This document shows, piece after piece, positions 9,790 to 54,085 of a stretch of DNA of 64,000 bases. Origin of the DNA: Haliotis rufescens. Lineage: Eukaryota. The stretch covers positions 86,676,001 through 86,740,000 of the forward strand of contig NW_025963779.1 in the NCBI RefSeq assembly GCF_023055435.1. Direction: 5' to 3'. The notes beneath the pieces were generated by a model that saw only the letters and a list, made by a program, of their open reading frames with translations, had not been told where the DNA came from and made no database searches. Every line of letters starts with the position of its first letter. The stretch's first letter is position 1. A program made the position numbers and the translations under genes.

Positions 9790-10262
9790 GTTTTGTTTGT
9801 TTGTTTATTTGTCGTATCTCTGCCTTACTTCAAAACGTCTTTACGTTGATAGATGGGACAAGAAAGGATTTCAGAGAAACTTAGCCTTATTGTTTTGTTT
9901 TGTTTGTTGTTTAACGCCGGACTCAGCAATAGTCCAGCTATATGACGGCAGTCTGTAAATAATCGAGTCAGGACCAGACAATCCAAGGATTGATATCATG
10001 AGTATCGATCCACGCAATTGGGATACGATGACATGCATCAACCAAGTCAGCGAGCCTGACCACCCGATCTCGTTAGTCGCCTCTTACGACAAGCATAATC
10101 GCCTGTTACGGAAAGCATGGGTTGCTGAAGACCTATTCTACCTCGGATCTTCACGGGGTGAGACAAGCATGGGCTGCTGAAGACCTATTCTACCTCGGAT
10201 CTTCACGGGGTGAGACTAGCTTGGGTTGCTGAAGACCTATTCTACCCCAGATCTTCACGTGT
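9790..10262 (-). mobile_element. SINE-like family 2 with three tandem 52-bp heads and a 3' extension (ortholog about 28555-29028)
   Basis: (aaac)n tail, about 70 bp of extension, then a second (aaac)n tail. Confidence 0.8.
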
Positions 10263-10289: not shown

Positions 10290-13200
10290 CAGGCCCCGAT
10301 TTCTCCATAAATTAATTCCATAAACCAGAGGATGCAATGTGTTGATAGCATTGACAGTAAATTAACTATGATTGACAATAAGCTGACATCTCTCGACATT
10401 ACAATGATAGAGACAACACTTCGCGTTGATAAGCTTGAAGCCTGTGTGAGAGAGACTGCATCAGAAAACAAAAAGCTGAAACAACAGGTACGGGAGCTTA
10501 CAGAACAGAGTACCGAGGATCGGGACAGGTTGTCGAGAGATGTAGAAGACGTGTTTTATGACATAGACTCCATATACCAGGAACAGCGAGACCTGAAAGA
10601 ATCTGTTATTGACCTGAAAACACGCTCTATGAGAGATAATCTACTCTTTCACGGGATCCCGGAAATGCCTGGAGAAGAACCTAAAGAGGTAATTAAATGT
10701 TTCTTAAAGAAAGAAATGAAGTGTGACACAGACATTCACCTCTTACGTGTACATAGGATTGGCCCTCACTTATCTAACAGACCACGTACTATAGTTGCAA
10801 AATTTGCAAATCCAGACGAACGGTGGGAAATCCTGACTAACACAAGACAGCTGAGAGAAACGCAATTCGGTGTTAGTGAACAATTTCCTCAAGAGATTGT
10901 GCAGAGACGAAGAGATCTACTCCCCATTTTCAAGGAAGCAAGGAGGCGTGGTTTGAAGTCTAACCTCACTGTAGACAGACTGTATATAGACGGGAGACGT
11001 GTGTACCCAGGAGACGACCCGTTTATAGATCTCACCCCACGAGGCCCTCCCCCCAGCAGGAGATCATACGCGAGTGGCGTCGGTCGGTCAGACAACAGAC
11101 AACCCAACAAGATGGCCAGGACTGGGGACACGGGAGAAAACAGGCCGCGGTAGGAGAATAACCGAGGTCAGCAAACCCGTGAGTCGCCTAACAGTGAAAA
11201 CGTAACTTCCCACGAGAAACTTAAGATACTGTCTCTTAATGTGTGTGGTATTAGGACAAAGCTGTTGAACCCCGATTTTGTGAACGATGTGTCCAGATAC
11301 GATATACTGTGTCTGACTGAAACTAAAACGTGTGATTTAGATGCTGTAAACATCCCAGGATTCTCAGTTCATATGAATAACAGAACTAACGCACAGAACA
11401 CACGTGTATCTGGCGGGATCATTGTAGCCATCAAAGAGACACTATTTGACAAGGTGAGCGTCATCGAAAAGATACATGATATTGTTTTATGGTGTAAGAT
11501 ACCAAGTGATTACCTGCATGTTAACGATGACCTTATCCTAGGAACTGTCTATATACCACCAGAGCAAAGTAGATTTCATTCACCGGAAATATTTACAACA
11601 CTAGAAAATGATATCATTCGTATGTCAAACTGCTCACAGTACATGTGTATTGTTGGTGATATGAATTGTCGTACTAAAAATCTTCCGGATTTTATCATTT
11701 TGGACGAATTTTTATGTGACAATGATATTATTGACGAGGAATTATTGTTTTCAAATGTACAACTTCTAGTTGACAACGGTGTAAAATTAGATAGAATATC
11801 AATGGATACTGAAACAAACTGTAACGGGTATAAACTCCTGGATTTATGTAAAAATAACCGGCTGTATATTGTGAATGGAAGATTAGGCAAAGACAAGGGT
11901 ATTGGTAAACTGACATGCAGAAATGCCAGTGTTGTCGATTATTGTATTGCATCAGCAGAAACATTCCCATTATTAATAGATTTTGAGGTGCAGGAGTTTG
12001 ACCCGATCTCGTCCGATGCACACTGTGGCTTATCGTAAACGTTAGATTGTACAGCACAACAACTATCTCCAGTTATAGATGATGACAAAGATGTACATTA
12101 CATAAAGTTGTAAAAAGATGGGTTCCTGATAAAAGTGAAACATTTTTATGTAATATCGATAAGGTTGCCATTACCCATCAGTGTACAGAATTAGATGCAT
12201 GTAAAGACCAATTAGAGCCAAATGACATTAACCAAATTGTAAATAAACTCTCTCAGACGCTGGTTACTGCGGCTGCAACTACTCTAGGTACTGTAAGAAA
12301 TTCGAGACACTCTGTACATAAGCACAAGCATAAACCCTGGTTTGATGAAAAATGTAAATCATACGTAGATTTTACCACAAGCGTAAACGTATATATGGAA
12401 GGACTAAAGACAGTAATAGCAAAGCTATGTACATTTCAGCTAGTAGAGCTTATAGTAAAACCCTAAAGAAGGCATTTAAGACATATCAAAACAAATGTGT
12501 CCAACAACTGAGGGAATGTAAGGATAGTAACCCTAAGAATTTTTGGGAAATTTTAAAATCATTTGAACCAAAGAAAACAGCAGAAATAATCAGTATTGAC
12601 AAATTTTTCGAATTTTTTAAAGACCTTAATCAAAGTTCTGATGATAATGACGATGTTTTTGCCAATAACACATATTATGATAATCATGATGATATCTTAG
12701 ATTGTAGGATTACAGAAGAAGAAATTATATGGGTTGGATGGTATTTACAATGAGTACATTAAAAGCTCTATTCATGTTATGATGCCGGTTTACGTGAGTT
12801 TTTTAACCTCGTTTTTGACACTGGAGTTTTACCTGAAGCTTGGTTTGTTGGCAAAATAAAAACAATCTACAAAAACAAAGGAAACCAAGCTGACCCAGAC
12901 AATTACAGAGGTATTTCTATCCTAAGCTGTTTAGGTAAATTGTTCACTACACTATTGAATAATCGTTTACAAGCTTACTCAGTTCAGACTAATCTGATAA
13001 GCGAAGCGCAAGCAGGATTTAGGAAAAAATACTCAACAATTGACAATATGTTTATTCTTAAAGCTCTCATTGATATCTATAGAAATCTTAATAAGAAGTT
13101 GTATTGTGTTTTCGTCGATTTTAGCAAAGCTTTCGATACAGTATGGTGGTGTGGTCTGTGGACAAAAATGATAAAGTCTAATATCAAAGGAAAATGTTTT

Positions 13201-14334
13201 AATGTCATATATAATATGTATCAAAATATCAAATCTTGTGTTTCTCGATTCTTCATGTTGTTAAAGAATATGTTTACCTTGGTATTTTATTTACAAACAC
13301 TGGTAGATTCTGTAAGGCACTAAAGAGACTGACAGATCAGGCATCTAGAGCAATGTACGCTGTATTTCGTAAAATTAGAATATTAGAAATTCCTATTGAC
13401 TGTCAACTGAAATTATTTGATTAACTTGTTCAGCCTGTATTGTTATATGGATCTGAGGTGTGGGGTTTTGAAAATGCTGTTTTCATTGAACGTGTACATC
13501 TTAAATTTTGTAAATATATTCTCAAGTTAAAACAGTCAACACCCGATTACATGGTATATGGTGAACTAGGGAGGTATCCTCTCAGCATTTTCATTAAGAT
13601 GAAAATGATTTCATATTGGTGCAAGCTAACATCATCACAAACTAGCCTTTCTAGTATAGTGTATAAACTTATGTTTCAAATGTCCATTGCAAATCCAGAT
13701 TACCATTTCCCACTATTAAAAGAAGTAAAATGCATTCTTCAAAATATAGGCTTTAATTACATTTGGCTGTCTCAAACCTTTATTAGTGCCGCATGGTTGA
13801 AACAAAATGTGAAACATGTTCTCATTGATAATTTTCTGCAAAGATGGCGAGAATCAAAGGAAAATTCATCTAAAGGTTACTATTATAACATGTTTAAAGA
13901 GTTACCATCTCTAGAACCTTATTTAATAGAACTACCAATCACCCTACGTATCTCTCTTGCTCGTTTTAGAACAGCAAATCATAGATTACCTATTGAAACA
14001 GGAAGATGGTATAATATTGTGAGAGAGGAAAGAAAATGTACATTGTGTAAAATTTATGTGATGAAATGCACTTTTTATTAGAATATCCAAAACTCTCAGA
14101 AATTAGAAACAAGTTTTTGCCTCAATACTACTGTATGTATCCTTCTGCCGTAAAATTCTCCCATTTGATGTCCATAACTTATAAGCCATTTCTATTAAAA
14201 CTGGCAAGTTAATTATATAAGATCATGTATGGAAATGTTCCACTGACATGTTTTCTTCATTGTATCTAATTCCTGTGTCCAATTACATCTCTGTATCACT
14301 GAAGTGATTTACGAGAATAAACATCATTCATTCA
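10290..14334 (+). mobile_element. Defective non-LTR retrotransposon (LINE with APE and RT; CR1/RTE-X-like, clade unverified), 5'-truncated at the duplication junction
   Basis: ORF1 10332-11153 has a coiled coil plus the L1-type RRM motif SMRDNLLFHGIPE. APE motifs KILSLNVCG, LCLTET, VGDMN, SDAH. RT motif FVDFSKAFD. C-terminal RFRTANHRLPIETGRW..CTLC. Tail aataaacatcattcattc. Carries stops, frameshifts and a deletion of about 370 bp at 13246 that removes YADD. Confidence 0.92.
10332..11153 (+). CDS. LINE ORF1 protein (likely N-terminally truncated)
   Basis: Heptad-rich N-terminus followed by RRM-like NLLFHGIPE, HRIG, RPRTIVAKF and EQFP motifs. Confidence 0.75.
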   Translation: MQCVDSIDSKLTMIDNKLTSLDITMIETTLRVDKLEACVRETASENKKLKQQVRELTEQSTEDRDRLSRDVEDVFYDIDSIYQEQRDLKESVIDLKTRSMRDNLLFHGIPEMPGEEPKEVIKCFLKKEMKCDTDIHLLRVHRIGPHLSNRPRTIVAKFANPDERWEILTNTRQLRETQFGVSEQFPQEIVQRRRDLLPIFKEARRRGLKSNLTVDRLYIDGRRVYPGDDPFIDLTPRGPPPSRRSYASGVGRSDNRQPNKMARTGDTGENRPR

Positions 14335-28146: not shown

Positions 28147-29055
28147 ATGAAGTGTGTTTCGCTGCAGTCAGTAGCATAATAGCTATATCAAGGCGACCTG
28201 TAAATAATCGAGTCCTGGACATGCTCAAACAGTAGACACCGGATCTTAATTTAACTCGTCTCTAACAACAATCCTGTGTTACTAGGCACATACATAAGGA
28301 GGCATTAAAGACAAATTGTATACAACTATATAAGAGGCTCTTTGACAATAGGTCTGAGTGAAACTGTTGACATCGAATATGTTTCAGTTCTCTGTTGCTT
28401 ATGTATATTAAAAGTCATTTCATAGAACGGTCTAATCACAAGGATCACAATGTATGTTAGAACCAATTTCCCTTCATCAAGTTTTTTTTTATCTAAGTTA
28501 CAATCACTTTGCCTTCTCATGTTCAAGATTTTCACAAAGTAAAGGGTAAAATTATGTTTTGTTTGTTTGTTTATTTGTCGTATCTCTGCCTTACTTCAAA
28601 ACGTCTTTACGTTGATAGATGGGACAAGAAAGGATTTCAGAGAAACTTAGCCTTATTTGTTTGTTTTGTTTGTTGTTTAACGCCAGACTCAGCAATAGTC
28701 CAGCTATATGACGGCGGTCTGTAAATAATCGAGTCAGGACCAGACAATCCAAGGATTGATATCATGAGTATCGATCCACGCAATTGGGATACGATGACAT
28801 GCATCAACCAAGTCAGCGAGCCTGACCACCCGATCTCGTTAGTCGCCTCTTACGACAAGCATAATCGCCTGTTACGGAAAGCATGGGTTGCTGAAGACCT
28901 ATTCTACCTCGGATCTTCACGGGGTGAGACAAGCATGGGCTGCTGAAGACCTATTCTACCTCGGATCTTCACGGGGTGAGACTAGCTTGGGTTGCTGAAG
29001 ACCTATTCTACCCAAGATCTTCACGTGTTCCTTCTATAATAAGCTGGCTTTTGAC

Positions 29056-32000
29056 CAGGCCCCGATTTCTCCATAAATTAATTCCATAAACCAGAGGATG
29101 CAATGTGTTGATAGCATTGACAGTAAATTAACTATGATTGACAATAAGCTGACATCTCTCGACATTACAATGATAGAGACAACACTTCGCGTTGATAAGC
29201 TTGAAGCCTGTGTGAGAGAGACTGCATCAGCAAACAAAAAGCTGAAACAACAGGTACGGGAGCTTACAGAACAGAGTACCGAGGATCGGGACAGGTTGTC
29301 GAGAGATGTAGAAGACGTGTTTTATGACATAGACTCCATATACCAGGAACAGCGAGACCTGAAAGAATCTGTTATTGACCTGAAAACACGCTCTATGAGA
29401 GATAATCTACTCTTTCACGGGATCCCGGAAATGCCTGGAGAAGAACCTAAAGAGGTAATTAAATGTTTCTTAAAGAAAGAAATGAAGTGTGACACAGACA
29501 TTCACCTCTTACGTGTACATAGGATTGGCCCTCACTTATCTAACAGACCACGTACTATAGTTGCAAAATTTGCAAATCCAGACGAACGGTGGGAAATCCT
29601 GACTAACACAAGACAGCTGAGAGAAACGCAATTCGGTGCTAGTGAACAATTTCCTCAAGAGATTGTGCAGAGACGAAGAGATCTACTCCCCATTTTCAAG
29701 GAAGGAAGGAGGCGTGGTTTGAAGTCTAACCTCACTGTAGACAGACTGTATATAGACGGGAGACGTGTGTACCCAGGAGACGACCCGTTTATAGATCTCA
29801 CCCCACGAGGCCCTCCCCCCAGCAGGAGATCATACGCGAGTGGCGTCGGTCGGTCAGACAACAGACAACCAAACAAGATGGCCAGGACTGAGGACACGGG
29901 AGAAAACAGGCCGCGGTAGGAGAATAACGGAGGTCAGCAAACCCGTGAGTCGCCTAACAGTGAAAACGTAACTTCCCACGAGAAACTTAAGATACTGTCT
30001 CTTAATGTGTGTGGTATTAGGACAAAGCTGTTGAACCCCGATTTTGTGAACGATGTGTCCAGATACGATATACTGTGTCTGACTGAAACTGAAACGTGTG
30101 ATTTAGATGCTGTGAACATCCCAGGATTCTCAGTTCATATGAATAACAGAACTAACGCACTGAACACACGTGTATCTGGCGGGATCATTGTAGCCATCAA
30201 AGAGACACTATTTGACAAGGTGAGCGTCATCGAAAAGATACATGATATTGTTTTATGGTGTAAGATACCAAGTGATTACCTGCATGTTAACGATGACCTT
30301 ATCCTAGGAACTGTCTATATACCACCAGAGCAAAGTAGATTTCATTCACCGGAAATATTTACAACACTAGAAAATGATATCATTCGTATGTCAAACTGCT
30401 CACAGTACATGTGTATTGTTGGTGATATGAATTGTCGTACTAAAAATCTTCCGGATTTTATCATTTTGGACGAATTTTTATGTGACAATGATATTATTGA
30501 CGAGGAATTATTGTTTTCAAATGTACAACTTCTAGTTGACAACGGTGTAAAATTAGATAGAATATCAATGGATACTGAAACAAACTGTAACGGGTATAAA
30601 CTCCTGGATTTATGTAAAAATAACCGGCTGTATATTGTGAATGGAAGATTAGGCAAAGACAAGGGTATTGGTAAACTGACATGCAGAAATGCCAGTGTTG
30701 TCGATTATTGTATTGCATCAGCAGAAACATTCCCATTATTAATAGATTTTGAGGTGCAGGAGTTTGACCCGATCTCGTCCGATGCACACTGTGGCTTATC
30801 GTTAACGTAAGATTGTACAGCACAACAACTATCTCCAGTTATAGATGATGACAAAGATGTACATGTACATAAAGTTGTAAAAAGATGGGTTCCTGATAAA
30901 AGTGAAACATTTTTATGTAATATCGATAAGGTTGCCATTACCCATCAGTGTACAGAATTAGATGCATGTAAAGACCAAATAGAGCCAAATGACATTAACC
31001 AAATTGTAAATAAACTCTCTCAGACGCTGGTTACTGCGGCTGCAACTACTCTAGGTACTGTAAGAAATTCTAGACACTCTGTACATAAGCACAAGCATAA
31101 ACCCTGGTTTGATGAAAAATGTAAATCATCACGTAGATTTTACCACAAGCGTAAACGTATATATGGAAGGACTAAAGACAGTAATAGCAAAGCTATGTAC
31201 ATTTCAGCTAGTAGAGCTTATAGTAAAACCCTAAAGAAGGCATTTAAGACATATCAAAACAAATGTGTCCAACAACTGAGGGAATGTAAGGATAGTAACC
31301 CTAAGAATTTTTGGGAAATTTTAAAATCATTTGAACCAAAGAAAACAGCGGAAATAATCAGTATTGACAAATTTTTCGAATTTTTTAAAGACCTTAATCA
31401 AAGTTCTGATGATAATGACGATGTTTTTGCCAATAACACATATTATGATAATCATGATGATATCTTAGATTGTAGGATTACAGAAGAAGAAATTATGTCA
31501 GCTGTCCGTGCATTGAAGAACAATAAGGCTTGTGGGTTGGATGGTATTTACAATGAGTACATTAAAAGCTCTATTCATGTTATGATGCCGGTTTACGTGA
31601 GTTTTTTAACCTCGTTTTTGACGCTGGAGTTTTACCTGAAGCTTGGCTTGTTGGCAAAATAAAACCAATCTACAAAAACAAAGGAAACCAAGCTGACCCA
31701 GACAATTACAGAGGTATTTCTATCCTAAGCTGTTTAGGTAAATTGTTCACTACACTATTGAATAATCGTTTACAAGCTTACTCAGTTCAGACTAATCTGA
31801 TAAGCGAAGCGCAAGCAGGATTAAGGAAAAAATACTCAACAATTGACAATATGTTTATTCTTAAAGCTCTCATTGATATCTATAGAAATCTTAATAAGAA
31901 GTTGTATTGTGTTTTCGTCGATTTTAGCAAAGCTTTCGATACAGTATGGTGGTGTGGTCTGTGGACAAAAATGATAAAGTCTAATATCAAAGGAAAATGT

Positions 32001-33508
32001 TTTAATGTCATATATAATATGTATCAAAATATCAAATCTTGTGTTTCACATAATAACAAGGTGTCAGGTTTCATCCCATGTAAAATTGGTGTAAGACAAG
32101 GTGAAAATTTGTCACCTTTCCTGTTTGCTTTGTACCTTAATGACCTTGAACAATTTTTATCTGAAAATGACTTTGAAGGACTGCATAATGTAAATATCCT
32201 TTTAATAGATTCACTTGAACTGTACGTAAAACTTTTTCTCATTCTGTATGCCGATGATACTGTTTTAATAGCCGAAAGCCCAGAAGATTTAAGAAAGTGT
32301 CTCACTATATTTGAAGAATATTGTACTATCTGGAAACTTAAAGTCAATGTTGACAAAACGAAAGTTGTTATTTTTGCCAAGCGCTCCACAAATAGAGTCA
32401 AATTTATGTTAAATGACTCGATTCTTCATGTTGTTAAAGAATATGTTTACCTTGGTATTTTATTTACAAACACTGGTAGATTCTGTAAGGCACTAAAGAG
32501 ACTGACAGATCAGGCATCTAGAGCAATGTACGCTGTATTTCGTAAAATTAGAATATTAGAAATTCCTATTGACTGTCAACTGAAATTATTTGATTAACTT
32601 GTTCAGCCAGTATTGTTATATGGATCTGAGGTGTGGGGTTTTGAAAATGCTGTTTTTAATTGAACGTGTACATCTTAAATTTTGTAAATATATTCTCAAG
32701 TTAAAACAGTCAACACCCGATTACATGGTATATGGTGAACTAGGGAGGTATCCTCTCAGCATTTTCATTAAGATAAGAATGATTTCATATTGGTGCAAGC
32801 TAACATCATCACAAACTAGCCTTTCTAGTATAGTATATAAACTTATGTTTCAAATGTCCATTGCAAATCCAGATTACCATTTCCCACTATTAAAAGAAGT
32901 AAAATGCATTCTTCAAAATATAGGCTTTAATTACATTTGGCTGTCTCAAACCTTTATTAGTGCCGCATGGTTGAAACAAAATGTGAAACATGTTCTCATT
33001 GATAATTTTCTACAAAGATGGCGAGAATCAAAGGAAAATTCATCTAAAGGTTACTATTATAACATGTTTAAAGAGTTACCGTCTCTAGAACCTTATTTAC
33101 TAGAACTACCAATCACCCTACGCATCTCTCTTGCTCGTTTTAGAACACCAAATCATAGATTACCTATTGAAACAGGAAGATGGTATAATATTGTGAGAGA
33201 GGAAAGAAAATGTACATTGTGTAAAATTTTTATATGTGATGAAATGCACTTTTTATTAGAATATCCAAAACTCTCAGAAATTAGAAACAAGTTTTTGCCT
33301 CAATACTACTGTATGTATCCTTCTGCCGTAAAATTCTCCCATTGGATGTCCATTACTTATAAGCCAATTCTATTAAAACTGGCAAGTTATATAAGATCAT
33401 GTATGGAAATGTTCCACTGACATGTTTTCTTCATTGTATCTAATTCCTGTGTCCAATTACATCTCTGTATCACTGCCTTGATTTACGAGAATAAACATCA
33501 TTCATTCA
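29056..33508 (+). mobile_element. Defective LINE, duplicate copy retaining the RT core
   Basis: ORF1 29098-29919, APE 30007-30810, RT with GVRQGENLSPFLF and LYADD (31743-32597). Stops at 30808 and 32595. Frameshifts near 31600 and 32657. Confidence 0.93.
29098..29919 (+). CDS. LINE ORF1 protein (copy Z)
   Basis: Differs from 10332-11153 at about 4 aa. Confidence 0.75.
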   Translation: MQCVDSIDSKLTMIDNKLTSLDITMIETTLRVDKLEACVRETASANKKLKQQVRELTEQSTEDRDRLSRDVEDVFYDIDSIYQEQRDLKESVIDLKTRSMRDNLLFHGIPEMPGEEPKEVIKCFLKKEMKCDTDIHLLRVHRIGPHLSNRPRTIVAKFANPDERWEILTNTRQLRETQFGASEQFPQEIVQRRRDLLPIFKEGRRRGLKSNLTVDRLYIDGRRVYPGDDPFIDLTPRGPPPSRRSYASGVGRSDNRQPNKMARTEDTGENRPR

Positions 33509-46729: not shown

Positions 46730-47455
46730 TGTTTTGTTTGTTTGTTTGTCGTTTCTCTGACTTACTTCAAAACGCCTTTACGTTGATAGATGGGACAAGA
46801 AAGGATTTCAGAGAAACTTAGCCTTATTTGTTTGTTTTGTTTGTTGTTTAACGCCACACTCAGCAATAGTCCAGCTATATGACGGCGGTCTGTAAATAAT
46901 CGAGTCAGGACCAGACAATCCAGTGATTGATATCATGATATCATCATCGGGATAATTTGGATACGATGACATGCATAATTCAGCGAACCTGACCACCCGA
47001 TCCCGGTAGTCGCCTCTTACGACAAGCATAGTCGCCTGTTACGGAAAGCATGGGTTGCTAAAGACCTGTTCTACCCCGGATCTTCACGGGGTGAGACAAG
47101 CATGGGTTGCTGAAGACCTATTCTACCCCGGATCTTCACGGGGTGAGACAAGCATGGGTTGCTAAAGACCTATTCTACTCCGGATCTCCACGGGGTGAGA
47201 CAAGCTTGGGTTGCTGAAGACCTATTCTACCCCGGATCTTCACGGGGTGAGACAAGCATGGGTTGCTGAAGACCTATTCTACCCCGGATCTTCACGGGGT
47301 GAGACAAGCATGGGTTGCTGAAGACCTATTCTACCCCGGATCTTCACGGGGTGAGACAAGCTTGGGTTGCTGAAGACCTATGCTACCCCGGATCTTCACA
47401 AGGGGAGACAAGCATGGGTTGCTGAAGACCTATTCTACCCCGGATCGTCACGGGT
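46730..47455 (-). mobile_element. SINE-like family 2 with eight tandem 52-bp heads
   Basis: Unit aagcatgggttgctgaagacctattctaccccggatcttcacggggtgagac repeated from 47046. Confidence 0.85.
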
Positions 47456-47954
47456 TCCTTCTATAATAAGCTGGCTTATGACTTACACCGGGTGTTCGCG
47501 AAAAGGGTAAGTATGCCCTTCCTACCAGCAGCACCCATCACTCGTCATGATGACGCCCTCAGATCAGTCTATGGGGATGAGGTTGGAGATATATTTAAAA
47601 GACTGATTCCTAACTGAGGACACACTACAAAGCCTCGTTACGTAAGAGACATGTATCTTTATCATCTATTATTAATGGTAAACCGTGTAAAAGTTGACAG
47701 CGTCGTTTTTCATGCAGCCGTCGCTTGAATTGCAACCCGAAGAGCAACATACTTTGTTGATGATATGTCCACAAATATCAATAAAATGTGTTCTGTTCGT
47801 GTTATAAATGACACTGAATCTCACTTATGACCGTTGTAAGGTCAAGCATGTCATGTTGTCCCAACATCTCCCACGTCACAAGCAGGGAGAAGGTCACGAT
47901 GTTTACCTATGGACCACCCTATCATATCAAACATGATCTGAATTAATGATGAAA

Positions 47955-48094
47955 ATCTTGTTATGTTGAAATTTCAAGATGTTATGTTGAAAATTCAAGA
48001 CAATCATCTTGAAATTTTAAGATACTAACTTAAAATTTCAACTTAGTATCTTGAAATTTCAAGAAAAAAACAAATGACCCTAAAAGGCTTCCGT
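47955..48094. repeat. Remnant of a non-autonomous DNA element with about 21-bp internal repeats
   Basis: Repeated atcttgaaatttcaaga units ending in gaccctaaaaggcttccgta. Confidence 0.5.
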
Positions 48095-48570
48095 AAAGAA
48101 CTGAATTATCATTGCATTTTATTATTCCTCAATGTGAATAAGAATAAAAAACACAAAATGCTCTCTTCGCTTATTATTGGTGTATACGTTTATATGATAC
48201 CTTCATCAATACAATAATCTTTTTATGTGTGTGGACATATGCACACGGGGACGAAACAATATTACACTTCAATTCCATATATTAAAATACAATTTTAGGG
48301 ATATTCACGTGCTGAAGATAAAATTGGAATTGTGACACTATTTTATCCGGGGAACTTTGTTAAACGCTCGACACAGATTGAGTTAACATTAAGCTCATTG
48401 TCGCTGGAGAAATATACGTCGAGAAAAGAGCAGGGTCGCGTTCTATGTTTACATTTCAGTTTACATATTTAAGTTTATTTATGTGTTTTTTTATATTCCG
48501 AATGCCTCACCAGACATGCTATGAATCAAGCTAGGGGTAACATAGTGAGGATGAGGCACGGCATGAAAAA

Positions 48571-48754
48571 TGACCTTGACGTACACCCCATCGTTGATAC
48601 ATGACGTCGTCAATCATTGATGTCACATGACTTTGTGAACTAGAATGGCGTTTGGTCACGTGCACGTGATGCCACGTACATATAAGGCGCAGACATCCAC
48701 TTCCTTCCTGTGTCCTAGTGCTACAGCCCCGACCAACATCTTTCGCAGGTTAGT
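48571..48754 (+). promoter_or_regulatory. Putative promoter and non-coding exon 1 of the SOUL-like gene
   Basis: TGACCTTGA 48571, TGACGTC 48602, GTCACATGAC 48622, tandem CACGTG at 48657 and 48663, CCACGT 48672, TATAAG 48681, donor cag|gttagt 48749. Confidence 0.45.
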
Positions 48755-49097
48755 AAATATTTGATATATTTCTTTCATAGGTTATTGCAAGTAGAAGGAT
48801 TCGTTGACAAGAACTTCTATTCTAAAATTGTACCGTTATTTGTAGTGCTTCATGTATTATTCAGGAACAACAAATTATGATTTTCTATAATTATATCTGT
48901 AATAACTATGATTTACATTCAATGGTTACATCCTCTTATGGCAACTCGGCCCATATGGTTTGTTTTCAATTTAAATTGATTAACCAAGTGGTATTTAACC
49001 TAAACATTACGTTAAAGATTGATAGAGTCCGAAGTTAATCTGCAGTGAAAGCCTAACACGTTATAATCATGCATACCTAAGCCTTTGTTAACTTGAG

Positions 49098-49220
49098 TTC
49101 GGTAGTCTTGTGGTTAAAGCGTCCTCTCGTCACGCCTGGGTTCGATTCCGCACATGGGTACAATGTGTTAACATCGTTCGAGGTGGCGCCGCCGTGATAG
49201 TGCTGGAACATTGCTAAAAT
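49098..49220 (+). mobile_element. SINE family 1, degenerate
   Basis: gtggttaaagcg..cgtcacgcc..ggttcgattcc..ttgctaaaa. Confidence 0.7.
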
Positions 49221-49324
49221 AGTTTACTATTCAGCAATGGGTACCACTCAAAATATCCACCATAATGTACTGTTGTGCACAGTACAACAACAGAAGCGAC
49301 AAAACACTAATCATACGGAAGTTC

Positions 49325-51143
49325 ACTGTACGATTCCGACTATATCACGAGTATACGTGTATACATCCTTATCAAACAGTAGTGATACCAAGTGTTCATG
49401 ATTAAAACTAGTGCGTGAAGACGACAGATTCGTTGTATTTCTATAACTGTACGATTCCGACTATATCACGAGTATACGTGTATACAACCTTATCAAATAG
49501 TGATGATACCAAGTGTTCATGATTAAAACTAGTGCGTGAAGACGACAGATTCGTTGTATTTCTATAACTGTACGATTCCGACTATATCACGAGTATACGT
49601 GTATACAACCTTATCAAATAGTGATACCAAGTGTTCATGATTAAAACTAGTGCGTGAAGACGACAGATTCGTTGTATTTCTATAACTGTACGATTCCGAC
49701 TATATCACGAGTATACGTGTATACAACCTTATCAAATAGTGATGATACCAAGTGTTCATGATTAAAACTAGTGCGTGAAGACGACAGATTCGTTGTATTT
49801 CTATAACTGTACGATTCCGACTATATCACGAGTATACGTGTATACAACCTTATCAAATAGTGATGATACCAAGTGTTCATGATTAAAACTAGTGCGTGAA
49901 GACGACAGATTCGTTGTATTTCTATAACTGTACGATTCCGACTATATCACGAGTATACGTGTATACAACCTTATCAAATAGTGATGATACCAAGTGTTCA
50001 TGATTAAAACTAGTGCGTGAAGACGACAGATTCGTTGTATTTCTATAACTGTACGATTCCGACTATATCACGAGTATACGTGTATACAACCTTATCAAAT
50101 AGTGATGATACCAAGTGTTCATGATTAAAACTAGTGCGTGAAGACGACAGATTCGTTGTATTTCTATAACTGTACGATTCCGACTATATCACGAGTTTAC
50201 GTGTATACAACCTTATCAAATAGTGATGATATCAAGTGTTCATGATTAAAACTAATGCGTGAAGACGACAGATTCGTTGATATTTCTATAACTGTACGAT
50301 TCCGACTATATCACGAGTATACGTGTATACAACCTTATCAAATAGTGATGATATCAAGTGTTCATGATTAAAACTAGTGCGTGAAGACGACAGATTCGTT
50401 GATATTTCTATAACTGTACGATTCCGACTATATCACGAGTATACGTGTATACAAGCTTATCAAATAGTGATGATATCAAGTGTTCATGATTAAAACTAAT
50501 GTGTGAAGATGACAGATTCGTTGATATTTCTATAACTGTACGATTCCAACTATATCACGAGTATACGTGTATACAAGCTTATCAAATAGTGATGATATCA
50601 AGTGTTCATGATTAAAACTAATGTGTGAAGACGACAGATTCGTTGATATTTCTATAACTGTACGATTCCGACTATATCACGAGTATACGTGTATACAACC
50701 TTATCAAATAGTGATGATACCAAGTGTTCATGATTAAAACTAATGTGTGAAGACGACAGATTCGTTGATATTTCTATAACTGTACGATTCCGACTATATC
50801 ACGAGTATACGTGTATAAATCCTTATCAAACAGTAATGATACCAAGTGTTCATGATTAAAACGAATGTGTGAAGACGACAGATTCGTTGATATTTCTATA
50901 ACTGTACGATTCCGACTATATCACGAGTATACGTGTATACAACCTTATCAGATAGTGATGATACCAAGTGTTCATGATTAAAACTAGTGCGTGAAGACGA
51001 CAGATTCGTTGTATTTCTATAACTGTACGATTCCGACTATATCACGAGTATACGTGTATACAACCTTATCAAATAGTGATGATATCAAGTGTTCATGATT
51101 AAAACTAATGTGTGAAGACGACAGATTCGTTGATATTTCTATA
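49325..51143. repeat. 121-bp tandem array, 15 units (118-122 bp)
   Basis: Unit starts at 49325, 49446, 49567, 49685 ... 51022. Confidence 0.97.
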
Positions 51144-52166
51144 CAACGTTTCGGTGTAAGAAATAATGCAGATGCTATTCATATGTCTTCCTGCTTTACT
51201 CACAGACATCACGTTGTGTGTAATGTGTTCATGTCGTCATATAGAAGCAGTGACATGACTGCACGATGGGTGGTGAGAGTACTATGTTTTATGTGATGAA
51301 CGTATGACATTCTAAAACACACCATTACTTACCCGAGAGAGCAGTTGAACGGCGAAAACACCCTGTAGTTATTGCTTAACCCAAAATGAAAGTGTTAAAC
51401 AAATGTTTTTGCAAAAGGGACTGGAGTTGTAGAGAGAATTTTGGTTTCAGATGCAGGTAACGTTGCTATTGCTATATAAATGGTCGTGTGGTGGTATGGT
51501 ATCAACCAAATTTCAGTGGCCACTACATGTAATTAACACATTGCAAGTGTACACTTTACACTGTAAAACGACAGACCGATATTCCAGAAAGATTTTGCCA
51601 AATTCAGATGTGTTCTGGCTCTATTTAGGATTGTTTTTTAAAATTTGTATATATTTGTATGTGTGTGTGAGAGAACTATATATGTGGGACTATATGTTGG
51701 ACTAAACCGACCAGTCGCCATGGTCAGATAACGTGTTGACACTGGTCAAACTCTGACTGACACGATACAGGCAGCTTGTACGTAACACGTAAGACGGCTT
51801 GAATCAGGATGTTCAGGACATGCCCCATCTATTGTAGATGACAGCCTCTTGTCTCACTCCGTGTAACGTGACGTAACATTATCCACGGTCTGACATCAGT
51901 ATTTAGTTACCATTTCTGCTAATGTAGCTCCACCAGACCCAAACCTGTTCCAGCATACGTCCCTTATTGAGACAGATCACTTCAGATTGATGAGTAGTCG
52001 TTTCTGATATATGTAACGCATGATGCCAAAGACGCTGAAAGGGGATATCCAGTACATCGATCAATAGTTATCAAGTTATATTCATGAATAAATGGGGTTG
52101 TGTTATATAAATATAAGCGACAAAATCCATTCCATAATTATAATAAATCATTGCGGAGAGTTAAAG

Positions 52167-52330
52167 TGAGTGAGTATGGTTTTACGCCGCTTTTATTAGC
52201 AATATTCCAGCAAAATCACGGCGGGGGACACCAGAAATAGGCTTCACACACTGTACCCATGTCGGGAATCGAACCCGGGTCTTCGGCGTGACGAGCTAAC
52301 ACTTTAACCACTCGGCTACCCGACCGCCCC
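52167..52330 (-). mobile_element. SINE family 1
   Basis: Full length with an imperfect TSD gcg(g/a)agagtta. Confidence 0.88.
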
Positions 52331-53763
52331 GCGAAGAGTTACAGGATCACTTTCAAATAGTGATCGTGCCAGGTGTTCGCGAAAAGTACGCTATCCCTTT
52401 CTTTCGTATCATGCATTACATGATTCATATTTAATAACTTCACGAACTGAAATATGTGGACTACATGGCCCGACTTGCACAAAGCGAGCTTAGTCAAACT
52501 AGGTCTCGCCAGAGCATGTTGTTAGGTTGGGATTAGAGTTAATGCAACGGTACATGGGCCAATCCAAGTTGCTATAGCTCCAGTAGATGGCGATGATATG
52601 TGCTTTCTATCATGGATTAGAGCAGGGACTTCAAAAAGAAGGCTCATTTATGAATAAATGCGACAAAACCCTTTCCATGATCACACATGATCTACAAAAG
52701 CAGACTCCACTGACCGACTATGTAGTCAGCATGTGTTTATGAATCACACTCTCAAATAGTGATGATACCAGATATTCGCTAAAAGGTGAACGTATGTATA
52801 GGGTTGTCCCTTGTCATTCGTTCGTGGTTCCCTTTCTGTTCAAGCTGATATGATGTGTTGATGTCGGGAGAACCTGAAATGATATGACAGCGAACACTGT
52901 TTTAGTAACTTTCGTAAAGTATCTAGAATGATCTGAGTGACAGTGTTCAACGCTGACGTGTATCCAGCATGTATTTGAGTTTATTTACCTTTCGGGTCCA
53001 GATAACGGGCTGACATTGCTTTGAATGCTCGATTCGGTAATTGAAATTCATGTTTAAAGTCATAACGTATCCCACCACGAATTTCGTGCGGTGCCACACA
53101 CTACCCACTGACATGACAAGAATGAATCGCAGGGATATAAATATGCATTTATGGTAATTATCTCATTTATGATATTATACACTGTGAAACATTTGTGTTT
53201 TCTACATGAAGATGACAGAACGACCCAATTACATTAATGCACTTTGTGTGTATGTTAGTCTGGATGTGAGCGAGTCATTGTCATGATAGATATCAAGAAG
53301 GTCAGTGTTATGATGGAGTATTCTAAAGCAACGGAAGAGATCGTGGGGTAGTTAAATGTGCCGTAGACAGGCTCGTCAGTGTAATATATGTCTCGTCAAC
53401 CCCCACCCCTACACCAAACCCGACCCCAACCCCACCAAACCCCCGCCACATATGATGGGGACATGACCGGATGCACGCGACATTCCTGTCATCCCCCAAA
53501 CAACTTAATGTGGCGATGTAGATGTTTGTTTAGAGTTTATTATCCCATGTCCCATGCGCATGACTTACGTAACTTATGCTGATGTAAATAAACATGACTC
53601 TTGTAACCCGAAACACATCCGTATAATTTGACGTTATATAGTTGCCCATAACGTTCATGGTGCTGTCAGGGACCACACATCACTTTGTTATATACTTCAG
53701 TGTGAAAGACTGAGTTTTCCTAAGTTGAGAAAAGTGATATTTTCATTGCAGATGGTCATTTAT

Positions 53764-53913
53764 ATAGAATACTAAACGAGCTCCCGTGTAATACCAGTTT
53801 TATAAAACGAGTGAATAGTTCAGGTATCTGACGAGCGAAAGCGAGTCAGATACCATAACTATTCACGAGTTTCATAAAATTGGTTTTACAAGGGAGCGAG
53901 TTTAGTATTTTAT
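53764..53913 (+). other. About 150-nt hairpin with three tandem GA/GA mismatches and a GCGAAAGC apex
   Basis: The two arms were base-paired by hand. Confidence 0.85.
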
Positions 53914-54085
53914 TTATTACTGGCCATTTATAACGTTTTTAGAATTATACTGTTGAGTGTGAATAGGCTGAAACCTACACGATCCACGGCATAATCCAAC
54001 TGAGTTTAACACAGTAATACTTCAAATACGTCAAAAGTTGAAACGTATGAATTTAATACCATCCAACGGTCCACCTTTAGAATTC

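Follow-up and report, generated by a model that had tools for sequence, protein, structure and literature searches.

A tandem array seeded by a truncated Naiad element in Haliotis rufescens, and the predicted dimeric, possibly self-cleaving RNA motif of its parent family

Satellites seeded by transposable elements arise through local amplification of a fragment of the element. In Penelope-like elements (PLEs), hammerhead ribozymes lie in the terminal repeat and form dimers via a palindrome, according to PMC4209133 and PMC6765202. One clade of PLEs, the Naiads, was reported to be without canonical hammerheads even with relaxed descriptors (PMC8557442), and the motif DKA is given there as diagnostic of the clade; published Naiad alignments also contain GIPMGTNCAP. 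Non-LTR retrozymes are recognized by two or more consecutive units that each hold a complete hammerhead (bioRxiv 10.64898/2026.07.22.740005), and the hammerhead core includes G12, A13, A14 and A15.1, the last paired with U16.1 (PMC3088659). Here we describe an array which an earlier note on this DNA had taken for an intronic satellite whose monomer is a degenerate type I hammerhead, a retrozyme or Penelope-like relic. The account we prefer, with a probability of roughly 0.55, is a local duplication that carries along one broken half of a fold that is probably dimeric and is predicted to be self-cleaving and to stand in for the hammerhead.

The array and its Naiad source

The window (the whole stretch of DNA analysed, 64,000 nucleotides) holds a tandem array of 15 units (15.0 copies) with a period of 121, units of 118-122 bp, 97% matches and a mean pairwise difference between units of 3.5%; the 121-bp period given by the earlier note was recovered at the place where it had put the array. 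The features discussed below are:

49325..51143, no strand: tandem array, each unit being 73 bp of Naiad 3' UTR plus 48 bp of unique DNA
49293..49397, minus strand: original Naiad insertion, 5'-truncated and internally deleted, about 105 nt long, reaching from unit 1 into the left flank
49350..49397, minus strand: the conserved Naiad RNA motif in mutated form and as its 3' half only, present in every unit without the 5' half
49325..49380, minus strand: hammerhead look-alike of the earlier note, not a hammerhead
51095..51143, no strand: unique host DNA beside the insertion's 5' end, copied into each unit (49398-49445 in unit 1)
51144..51155, minus strand: GAAACGTTG in the unique flank, with no first core upstream

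A two-unit query against the 1.33-Gb assembly gave 721 first-look candidates, and all 39 matches listed outside the array cover monomer positions 1-76 only, so that among the best candidates scored the whole 121-bp monomer is not dispersed. The DNA upstream of these listed matches encodes the end of a reverse transcriptase (RT), and most of 40 loci picked on RT protein have the monomer segment downstream of the RT match, at a distance of about 330-350 nt. At the parent loci the RT comes last in its ORF and is followed by the 3' UTR; it shows the motifs GIPMGTNCAP, RYIDD and DKA (the last seen in L037 and L025, 2 of the 20 long loci) and is 49-54% identical to DKA-bearing metagenome RTs. The longest open frame over an RT match measures 245 aa (150 copies scored), and Pfam did not recognize the RT pieces (best RVT_1 E 0.055). 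An N-terminal GIY-YIG endonuclease or CxC was not found in the 20 loci, all of which are truncated or end before that region; since the endonuclease end was not reached, the assignment to Naiad rests on the motifs and on the shared 3' RNA. By these sequence marks, the source of the monomer is the 3' UTR of a 5'-truncated Naiad PLE, and the Penelope-like origin on the minus strand, now inactive, proposed by the earlier note was borne out, as to origin, by these RT-linked relatives; the reason it gave, a decayed hammerhead, was not.

The insertion in the window, read on the minus strand, extends from 49397 to 49293 and terminates at the family's 3' end (TTTTGTCGCTT). Its 5' end (+39) is ordinary among 89 copies whose 5' ends are evenly spread. 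The array segment differs from the family majority by 18%, compared with a median of 8% and a maximum of 24% for 32 RT-picked copies, and this Naiad copy is well decayed: its half of the motif reads CACTTG instead of CACCTG, contains a GTATC helix strand, and has the P5 hairpin and the outer-helix strand broken. The 48-bp part of each unit, 40% of its length, is unique in the genome and continues into the right flank, where 51090-51420 matched nothing but this array in a genome search. With that share of unique local DNA, and with no unit containing a complete ribozyme, the monomer is not a retrozyme.

We therefore propose an order of events that we regard as highly probable. An old Naiad copy, 5'-truncated inside the motif, sits in unique DNA, as the alignments show, and a 121-bp stretch across the insertion's 5' junction would then have been amplified in place by slippage or unequal exchange, as suggested by the unit boundaries and by a single-unit form in run X1. 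The contig of that run joins 49340 to 51055 and corresponds to a single unit with a 17-nt deletion, and run X15 contains the tandem junction of the array. Since X1 is a related sample with a deletion, its single unit may represent a contracted allele rather than the ancestral state. As a speculation, the partial likeness of GAAACGTTG to the unit start could have aided the first slippage. By itself the array is an ordinary element-seeded satellite. Its intronic position was not confirmed: no splice joint over it is listed, and no host exon was seen on either side when sought as long ORFs only. Two small-RNA read sets gave 0 reads on the array but are too thin to be informative, since across 9 kb one set placed just 7 reads and the second placed none; contigs of runs whose RNA status is guessed cover the flanks thinly and show no transcript.

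Other repeats were seen in and beyond the window. Copies of a tRNA-like, high-copy short repeat flank the array at 49097-49219 and 52165-52330, with an Rfam tRNA match of 27.5 bits at 52254-52325 inside this repeat. Positions 1-47500 form a tandem segmental duplication of three copies of about 18.4 kb, each with two single-ORF BTB/POZ genes (two checked with Pfam), and two of the three copies hold a broken LINE (10311-14081 and 29077-33420). The same Naiad 3' UTR seeded three more arrays, giving four arrays of three periods in total: 52 bp x 73 (L350:716-4512), 31 bp x 22 (L359:551-1236) and 31 bp x at least 67 (L360:433-2501), the last two having an identical unit on separate contigs.

The conserved Naiad motif: occurrence and fold

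Directly upstream of the part copied into the array, the family carries CGGGTG, a palindrome, CAG, five bases, GCTYAC, a short palindrome, CACCYG and the complement of the five bases. The RNA would accordingly read P1, CGGGUG, a 10-nt palindrome, CAG, the 5-bp P3, GCUYAC, a 6-8-nt palindrome, CACCYG, the P3 partner, P5 and the P1 partner, a layout shown by the covariation described below. The motif measures 75-110 nt and lies about 110-170 nt before the 3' end of the element, on the sense strand. Its exact pattern has 1289 matches in the genome and the reversed pattern 0; it is found in at least two subfamilies of this genome, with compensatory changes, and at least 120 times in metagenome contigs. 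The same layout, with other helix sequences, stands near the 3' ends of 12 published Naiad consensi (File S5, PMC8557442), which were each found by one short word and read by eye in the accessible part of the 54. P3 forms, again by eye, 5/5 pairs in 10 of them and 4/5 in 2. The header that follows the sequence names eight of these consensi (four bivalves, four hemichordates); the other four, placed by their order only, are probably from two Clytia, a pearl oyster and a fish. CGGGUG, CAG, GCUYAC and CACCYG were fixed by our search pattern, and their invariance rests on these 12 consensi from the accessible part of the file. We found no description of the motif in the accessible text and legends of PMC8557442, nor in a literature search that left subscription journals and supplement figures outside.

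In 14 of the 42 tested loci a same-strand RT was detected 44-455 nt upstream of the motif (RT identities 30-69%); the 28 loci where none was found upstream include many short or truncated ones, and 11 with at least 1000 nt of upstream sequence. Well-formed motifs with no detectable Naiad RT upstream were seen in metagenome contigs L143, L183, L211, L221, L224 and L229, and similarly in L134, L165, L218, L233 and L234, several contigs being short; these may be non-autonomous elements or come from other host lineages. A covariance model of the motif (R1) matches 31 of the 40 RT-picked loci. It matches nothing in the window, since the array starts only within the second palindrome.

A scan of 596 Gb of prokaryotic sequence returned 17 pattern matches, of which 3 form all inner P3 pairs; under the model, one contig (L250) scores strongly and one other weakly. 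L250, which is 407 bp long and belongs to a bacterial assembly, holds a Naiad 3' end whose motif is intact; it is nearly identical to a published bivalve consensus and is probably a contamination. With this fragment excepted, the prokaryotic matches look like chance and a spread of the motif into prokaryotes was rejected; five viral pattern matches also look like chance, and a search of viral contigs for Naiad RT gave one weak hit only. Separately, the 5' ends of several bivalve and hemichordate Naiads in the accessible part of File S5 (PMC8557442) show a second conserved motif, TGCTGGTGGA ... TCCCCGAG, whose flanking arms seem to covary; it could serve as a pairing partner of the 3' motif, as a promoter or as an RNA element.

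The fold was examined in two sets. The first consists of 28 hand-picked sequences, for which the search pattern allowed only R and Y at the two outer pairs of P3; all five pairs of P3 and all five pairs of the 10-nt palindrome change on both sides, and 97.5% of the cells pair, versus 72.4% after shuffling (0/500) and 35-43% when the strands are slid. The second comprises 31 flank-defined clusters, including decayed copies and not fully independent, after six had been dropped beforehand (GC above 0.6 or viral). The three P3 pairs that the pattern leaves free all form in 26 clusters (0.10 with swapped partners), the two palindromes reach at least 6 nt in 23 and 18 (0.15 and 0.13 when shuffled), and P1 with an abutting P5, both outside the pattern, is found in 19/31 versus 36/300 with swapped partners. 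An earlier test of P1 that left out the P5 condition separated poorly, with a mean of 8.6 versus 6.7 pairs. On the sense strand, P3 contains 12 G-U as opposed to 4 A-C. That the motif is a real RNA structure is, in our opinion, practically certain. The helix between CGGGUG and CACCYG has no double change, five of its pairs being invariant and one varying on one side, and YACYC is an alternative partner for GGGUG. Most fold predictions stack this helix on P1, where it crosses P3; if CGGGUG indeed pairs with CACCYG, the motif would be a pseudoknot.

Dimerization, self-cleavage and the alternatives

The palindromes point to an RNA dimer. Two adjacent bases at the centre of the 10-nt palindrome pair in 27 of the 28 sequences, with 15 double changes; adjacent bases cannot pair within one strand, yet they covary, which indicates pairing between strands, and a 6-nt palindrome, which cannot fold on itself, likewise suggests pairing between two copies. 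For intact palindromes of 8-10 nt, computed self-duplexes reach -10 to -20 kcal/mol and hairpins 0 to -4. On this comparative evidence, the motif probably pairs with a second copy of itself, and the two copies would meet either within a tandem transcript or between molecules.

What such a dimer could do is suggested by three observations: the motif occupies the slot of the dimeric PLE hammerheads, sister Naiads carry a twister-like motif there, and the palindromes covary. Taken together, these led us to propose a dimer-dependent self-cleaving RNA, which would cut the RNA and so process tandem Naiad transcripts. For the intact motif we put self-cleavage at about even odds. Only tentatively would we go further and predict a new class of ribozyme, an obligate homodimer with two intermolecular palindromic helices that interchanges with hammerhead and twister in the 3' slot of PLEs; its hosts would be the Naiads of molluscs and hemichordates and probably of cnidarians and fish. 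Compared with Rfam 15, the intact motif gave no ribozyme hit (8 loci searched at E<=5, another search of 20 at E<=2; permuted forms would escape), and no catalytic residues can therefore be assigned. The 89 copies show no peak of 5' truncation points at the motif, so that no trace of a cut site is visible in the genome. For one PLE studied in vitro, hammerhead cleavage was unnecessary for insertion (PMC11167929).

The main rival to the dimer-dependent self-cleaving RNA, somewhat less probable than cleavage and a genuine possibility, is a non-catalytic dimerization or recognition element, bound by the Naiad RT-endonuclease for choice of template or start of reverse transcription. The motif's sense-strand position, some 110-170 nt short of the 3' end and behind diverse RTs, would suit such an element, as would the missing cut-site signal; the palindromes suit a dimer under either reading. 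PMC11167929 describes a PLE protein, predicted to be dimeric, that initiates reverse transcription at an internal stem-loop. Against protein binding, sister Naiads with similar RTs carry the twister-like motif instead, as read in the available consensi, and a protein site would presumably be swapped less easily than a ribozyme. Moreover, invariant unpaired bases in a pseudoknotted multistem junction of such a size are the criteria by which ribozyme candidates were chosen in PMC10085705; the same source reports that ten motifs picked in this way did not cleave. The strong covariation within an RNA of 75-110 nt makes the question of self-cleavage testable by one transcription assay. Should the motif cleave, it would be an obligate RNA dimer and either a new class of ribozyme or a known one in an unrecognized rearrangement; otherwise it becomes a candidate RNA element for recognition by a telomerase-related RT.

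It is improbable that the motif acts as DNA, as a cruciform or as hairpins of single-stranded cDNA used by the endonuclease at integration. Perfect palindromes are strand-symmetric, and PLE insertions form inverted and tandem structures according to PMC8557442, both of which would agree with action in DNA. However, the excess of G-U over A-C favours the sense strand, the exchange of G.U and G-C in the putative pseudoknot helix works on the sense strand only, and a cruciform has no need of paired centre bases.

The reading that survives least is that the monomer descends from a type I hammerhead, in a retrozyme or pseudo-LTR, with a decayed GAAAC: it is very improbable and already largely refuted, since Rfam, the descriptors and the family-wide state of A9, A15.1 and stem I are all against it. 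The letters on which the earlier note had built it are real. All those quoted for the minus strand of 49325-49380 are present, the ACUGU/ACAGU stem I is perfect in units 1 and 13 only, and the 56-nt piece folds better on the minus than on the plus strand. The CCGAAACGTTG said to stand at the equivalent position of the array edge is present there, but in unique flank and with a 3-nt offset, and there is no first core within 80 nt of it. No hammerhead is among the 16 Rfam hits (E<=10) in 47000-54000. A relaxed descriptor allowing one GAAA mismatch, one inserted base and one stem I mismatch had no hit in the array; elsewhere in the window (124 kb, both strands counted) it gave 7, and it picked out 23 of 3000 shuffled monomers; among relatives, the strict descriptor passed 0/66 and the relaxed one 1/66. 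As a side observation, a high-copy element contains a 52-bp tandem repeat with CTGAAGA (10113-10259, 28879-29025 and 47046-47454), which yields 3 of the 7 relaxed hits and no strict hit. The 5-bp stem I of the earlier note leaves no unpaired H17, and the alternative register, as read from the sequence, inserts one U ahead of U3 and one G ahead of G12 and sets U15.1 against U16.1. The usual unit is no more stable than its shuffles, with a z of -0.31 (56-mer) or +0.26 (121-mer); the 56-mer of unit 1 has -2.09.

The relatives, chosen irrespective of hammerhead letters, decide most clearly against a decayed hammerhead. The first core is UUGAUAA in 14/15 units and CUGAUAA in unit 14, with A9 derived: this position is G in 66/77 copies picked on a downstream anchor (12/89 did not reach the region) and in 26/32 RT-picked ones. 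The position of A15.1 is T in 30/32 and 64/66 relatives, and the partners of stem I are A and A in the family, so that stem I is unpaired. With G at A9 and an unpaired stem I in the family, the A9 and the stem I of the array are recent changes. GGAAUC occurs in all 15 units but one, which has a G-to-A change upstream, and by the family counts it is ancestral and not, as had been supposed, a corrupted GAAAC. The search for relatives with an intact core, as far as it went, also spoke against a hammerhead: GAAAC stands at that position in 90 places (50 of them in two 31-bp arrays), and of 8 places retrieved a single one, a deleted copy, shows a first core upstream. A few points do favour descent from a hammerhead. 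The U3-A8 pair is a real core variant of PLEs (PMC4209133), the annotation of some Naiads includes hammerhead cores or half cores, and the family keeps UUGAUA. Stem II can be closed by G10.1-C11.1 in the array, and in the family with one spacer base, where G10.1 (74/77) can close a 4-bp stem. This closure, however, competes with the covarying P1/P5, for the family's UUGAUAG is the loop and 3' arm of hairpin P5, and the 3' strand of P1 supplies the 5' arm of the proposed stem II. In a sister subfamily these letters are altered in a way that preserves hairpin P5 (ATCACTAT/ATAGTGAT versus ATCACTGA/TCAGTGAT), and only 2/26 other families have the first core after the motif.

Comparison with known systems

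The parent family is closest to the Naiad clade as described in PMC8557442, with a C-terminal RT followed by a short 3' UTR, DKA, GIPMGTNCAP, heavy 5' truncation and no canonical hammerhead, and the same 3' motif stands in the 12 published consensi. It differs in that the copies here are decayed, and the N-terminal GIY-YIG and CxC lie outside the sequence reached. The minimal type I hammerheads of PLEs (PMC4209133) share the terminal-repeat slot and a palindrome-driven dimer as the likely active form, but the CUGANGA/GAAA/UH core is in neither the array nor the intact motif, and the Naiad motif differs in its invariant bases, its two palindromes and its putative pseudoknot. With the non-LTR retrozymes (bioRxiv 10.64898/2026.07.22.740005) the array has in common a head-to-tail repeat from a PLE end; there, consecutive units carry a complete hammerhead, whereas here none does and 48 bp per unit are local unique DNA.

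In three mytilid Naiads (Naiad_Mgal, Naiad_Bpla and Naiad_Mphi; File S5, PMC8557442) the CGGGUG motif is absent and a palindrome stands at the same 3' place. Read by eye and not by model, the motif found there looks like a circularly permuted twister (Rfam RF03160, RF03154), and this would place a twister in the same slot. A 17-nt core of the twister-like motif lies inside Rfam twister hits (2/20 phage loci). A mussel-type locus, a partial copy, gave no twister when compared with Rfam. The twister-like motif has no sequence in common with the CGGGUG motif, and a 19-nt pattern of it had 0 matches in this genome; our searches found no paper joining the twister ribozyme and Naiad.

HDV-like ribozymes are nested double pseudoknots with the order P1-P2-P3-P1.1-P4-J4/2-P2. 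The G.U/G-C pair that opens GGGUG/CACCY, the G after it, and the GCUYA after the helix presumably echo the P1, P1.1 and J4/2 of this class, but the order of strands and helices in the Naiad motif is different, with no equivalent of P3/L3 and no Rfam match. Finally, the array matches the known pattern of element-seeded satellites and has nothing unusual in this respect; the novelty lies in the Naiad motif, and not in the array.
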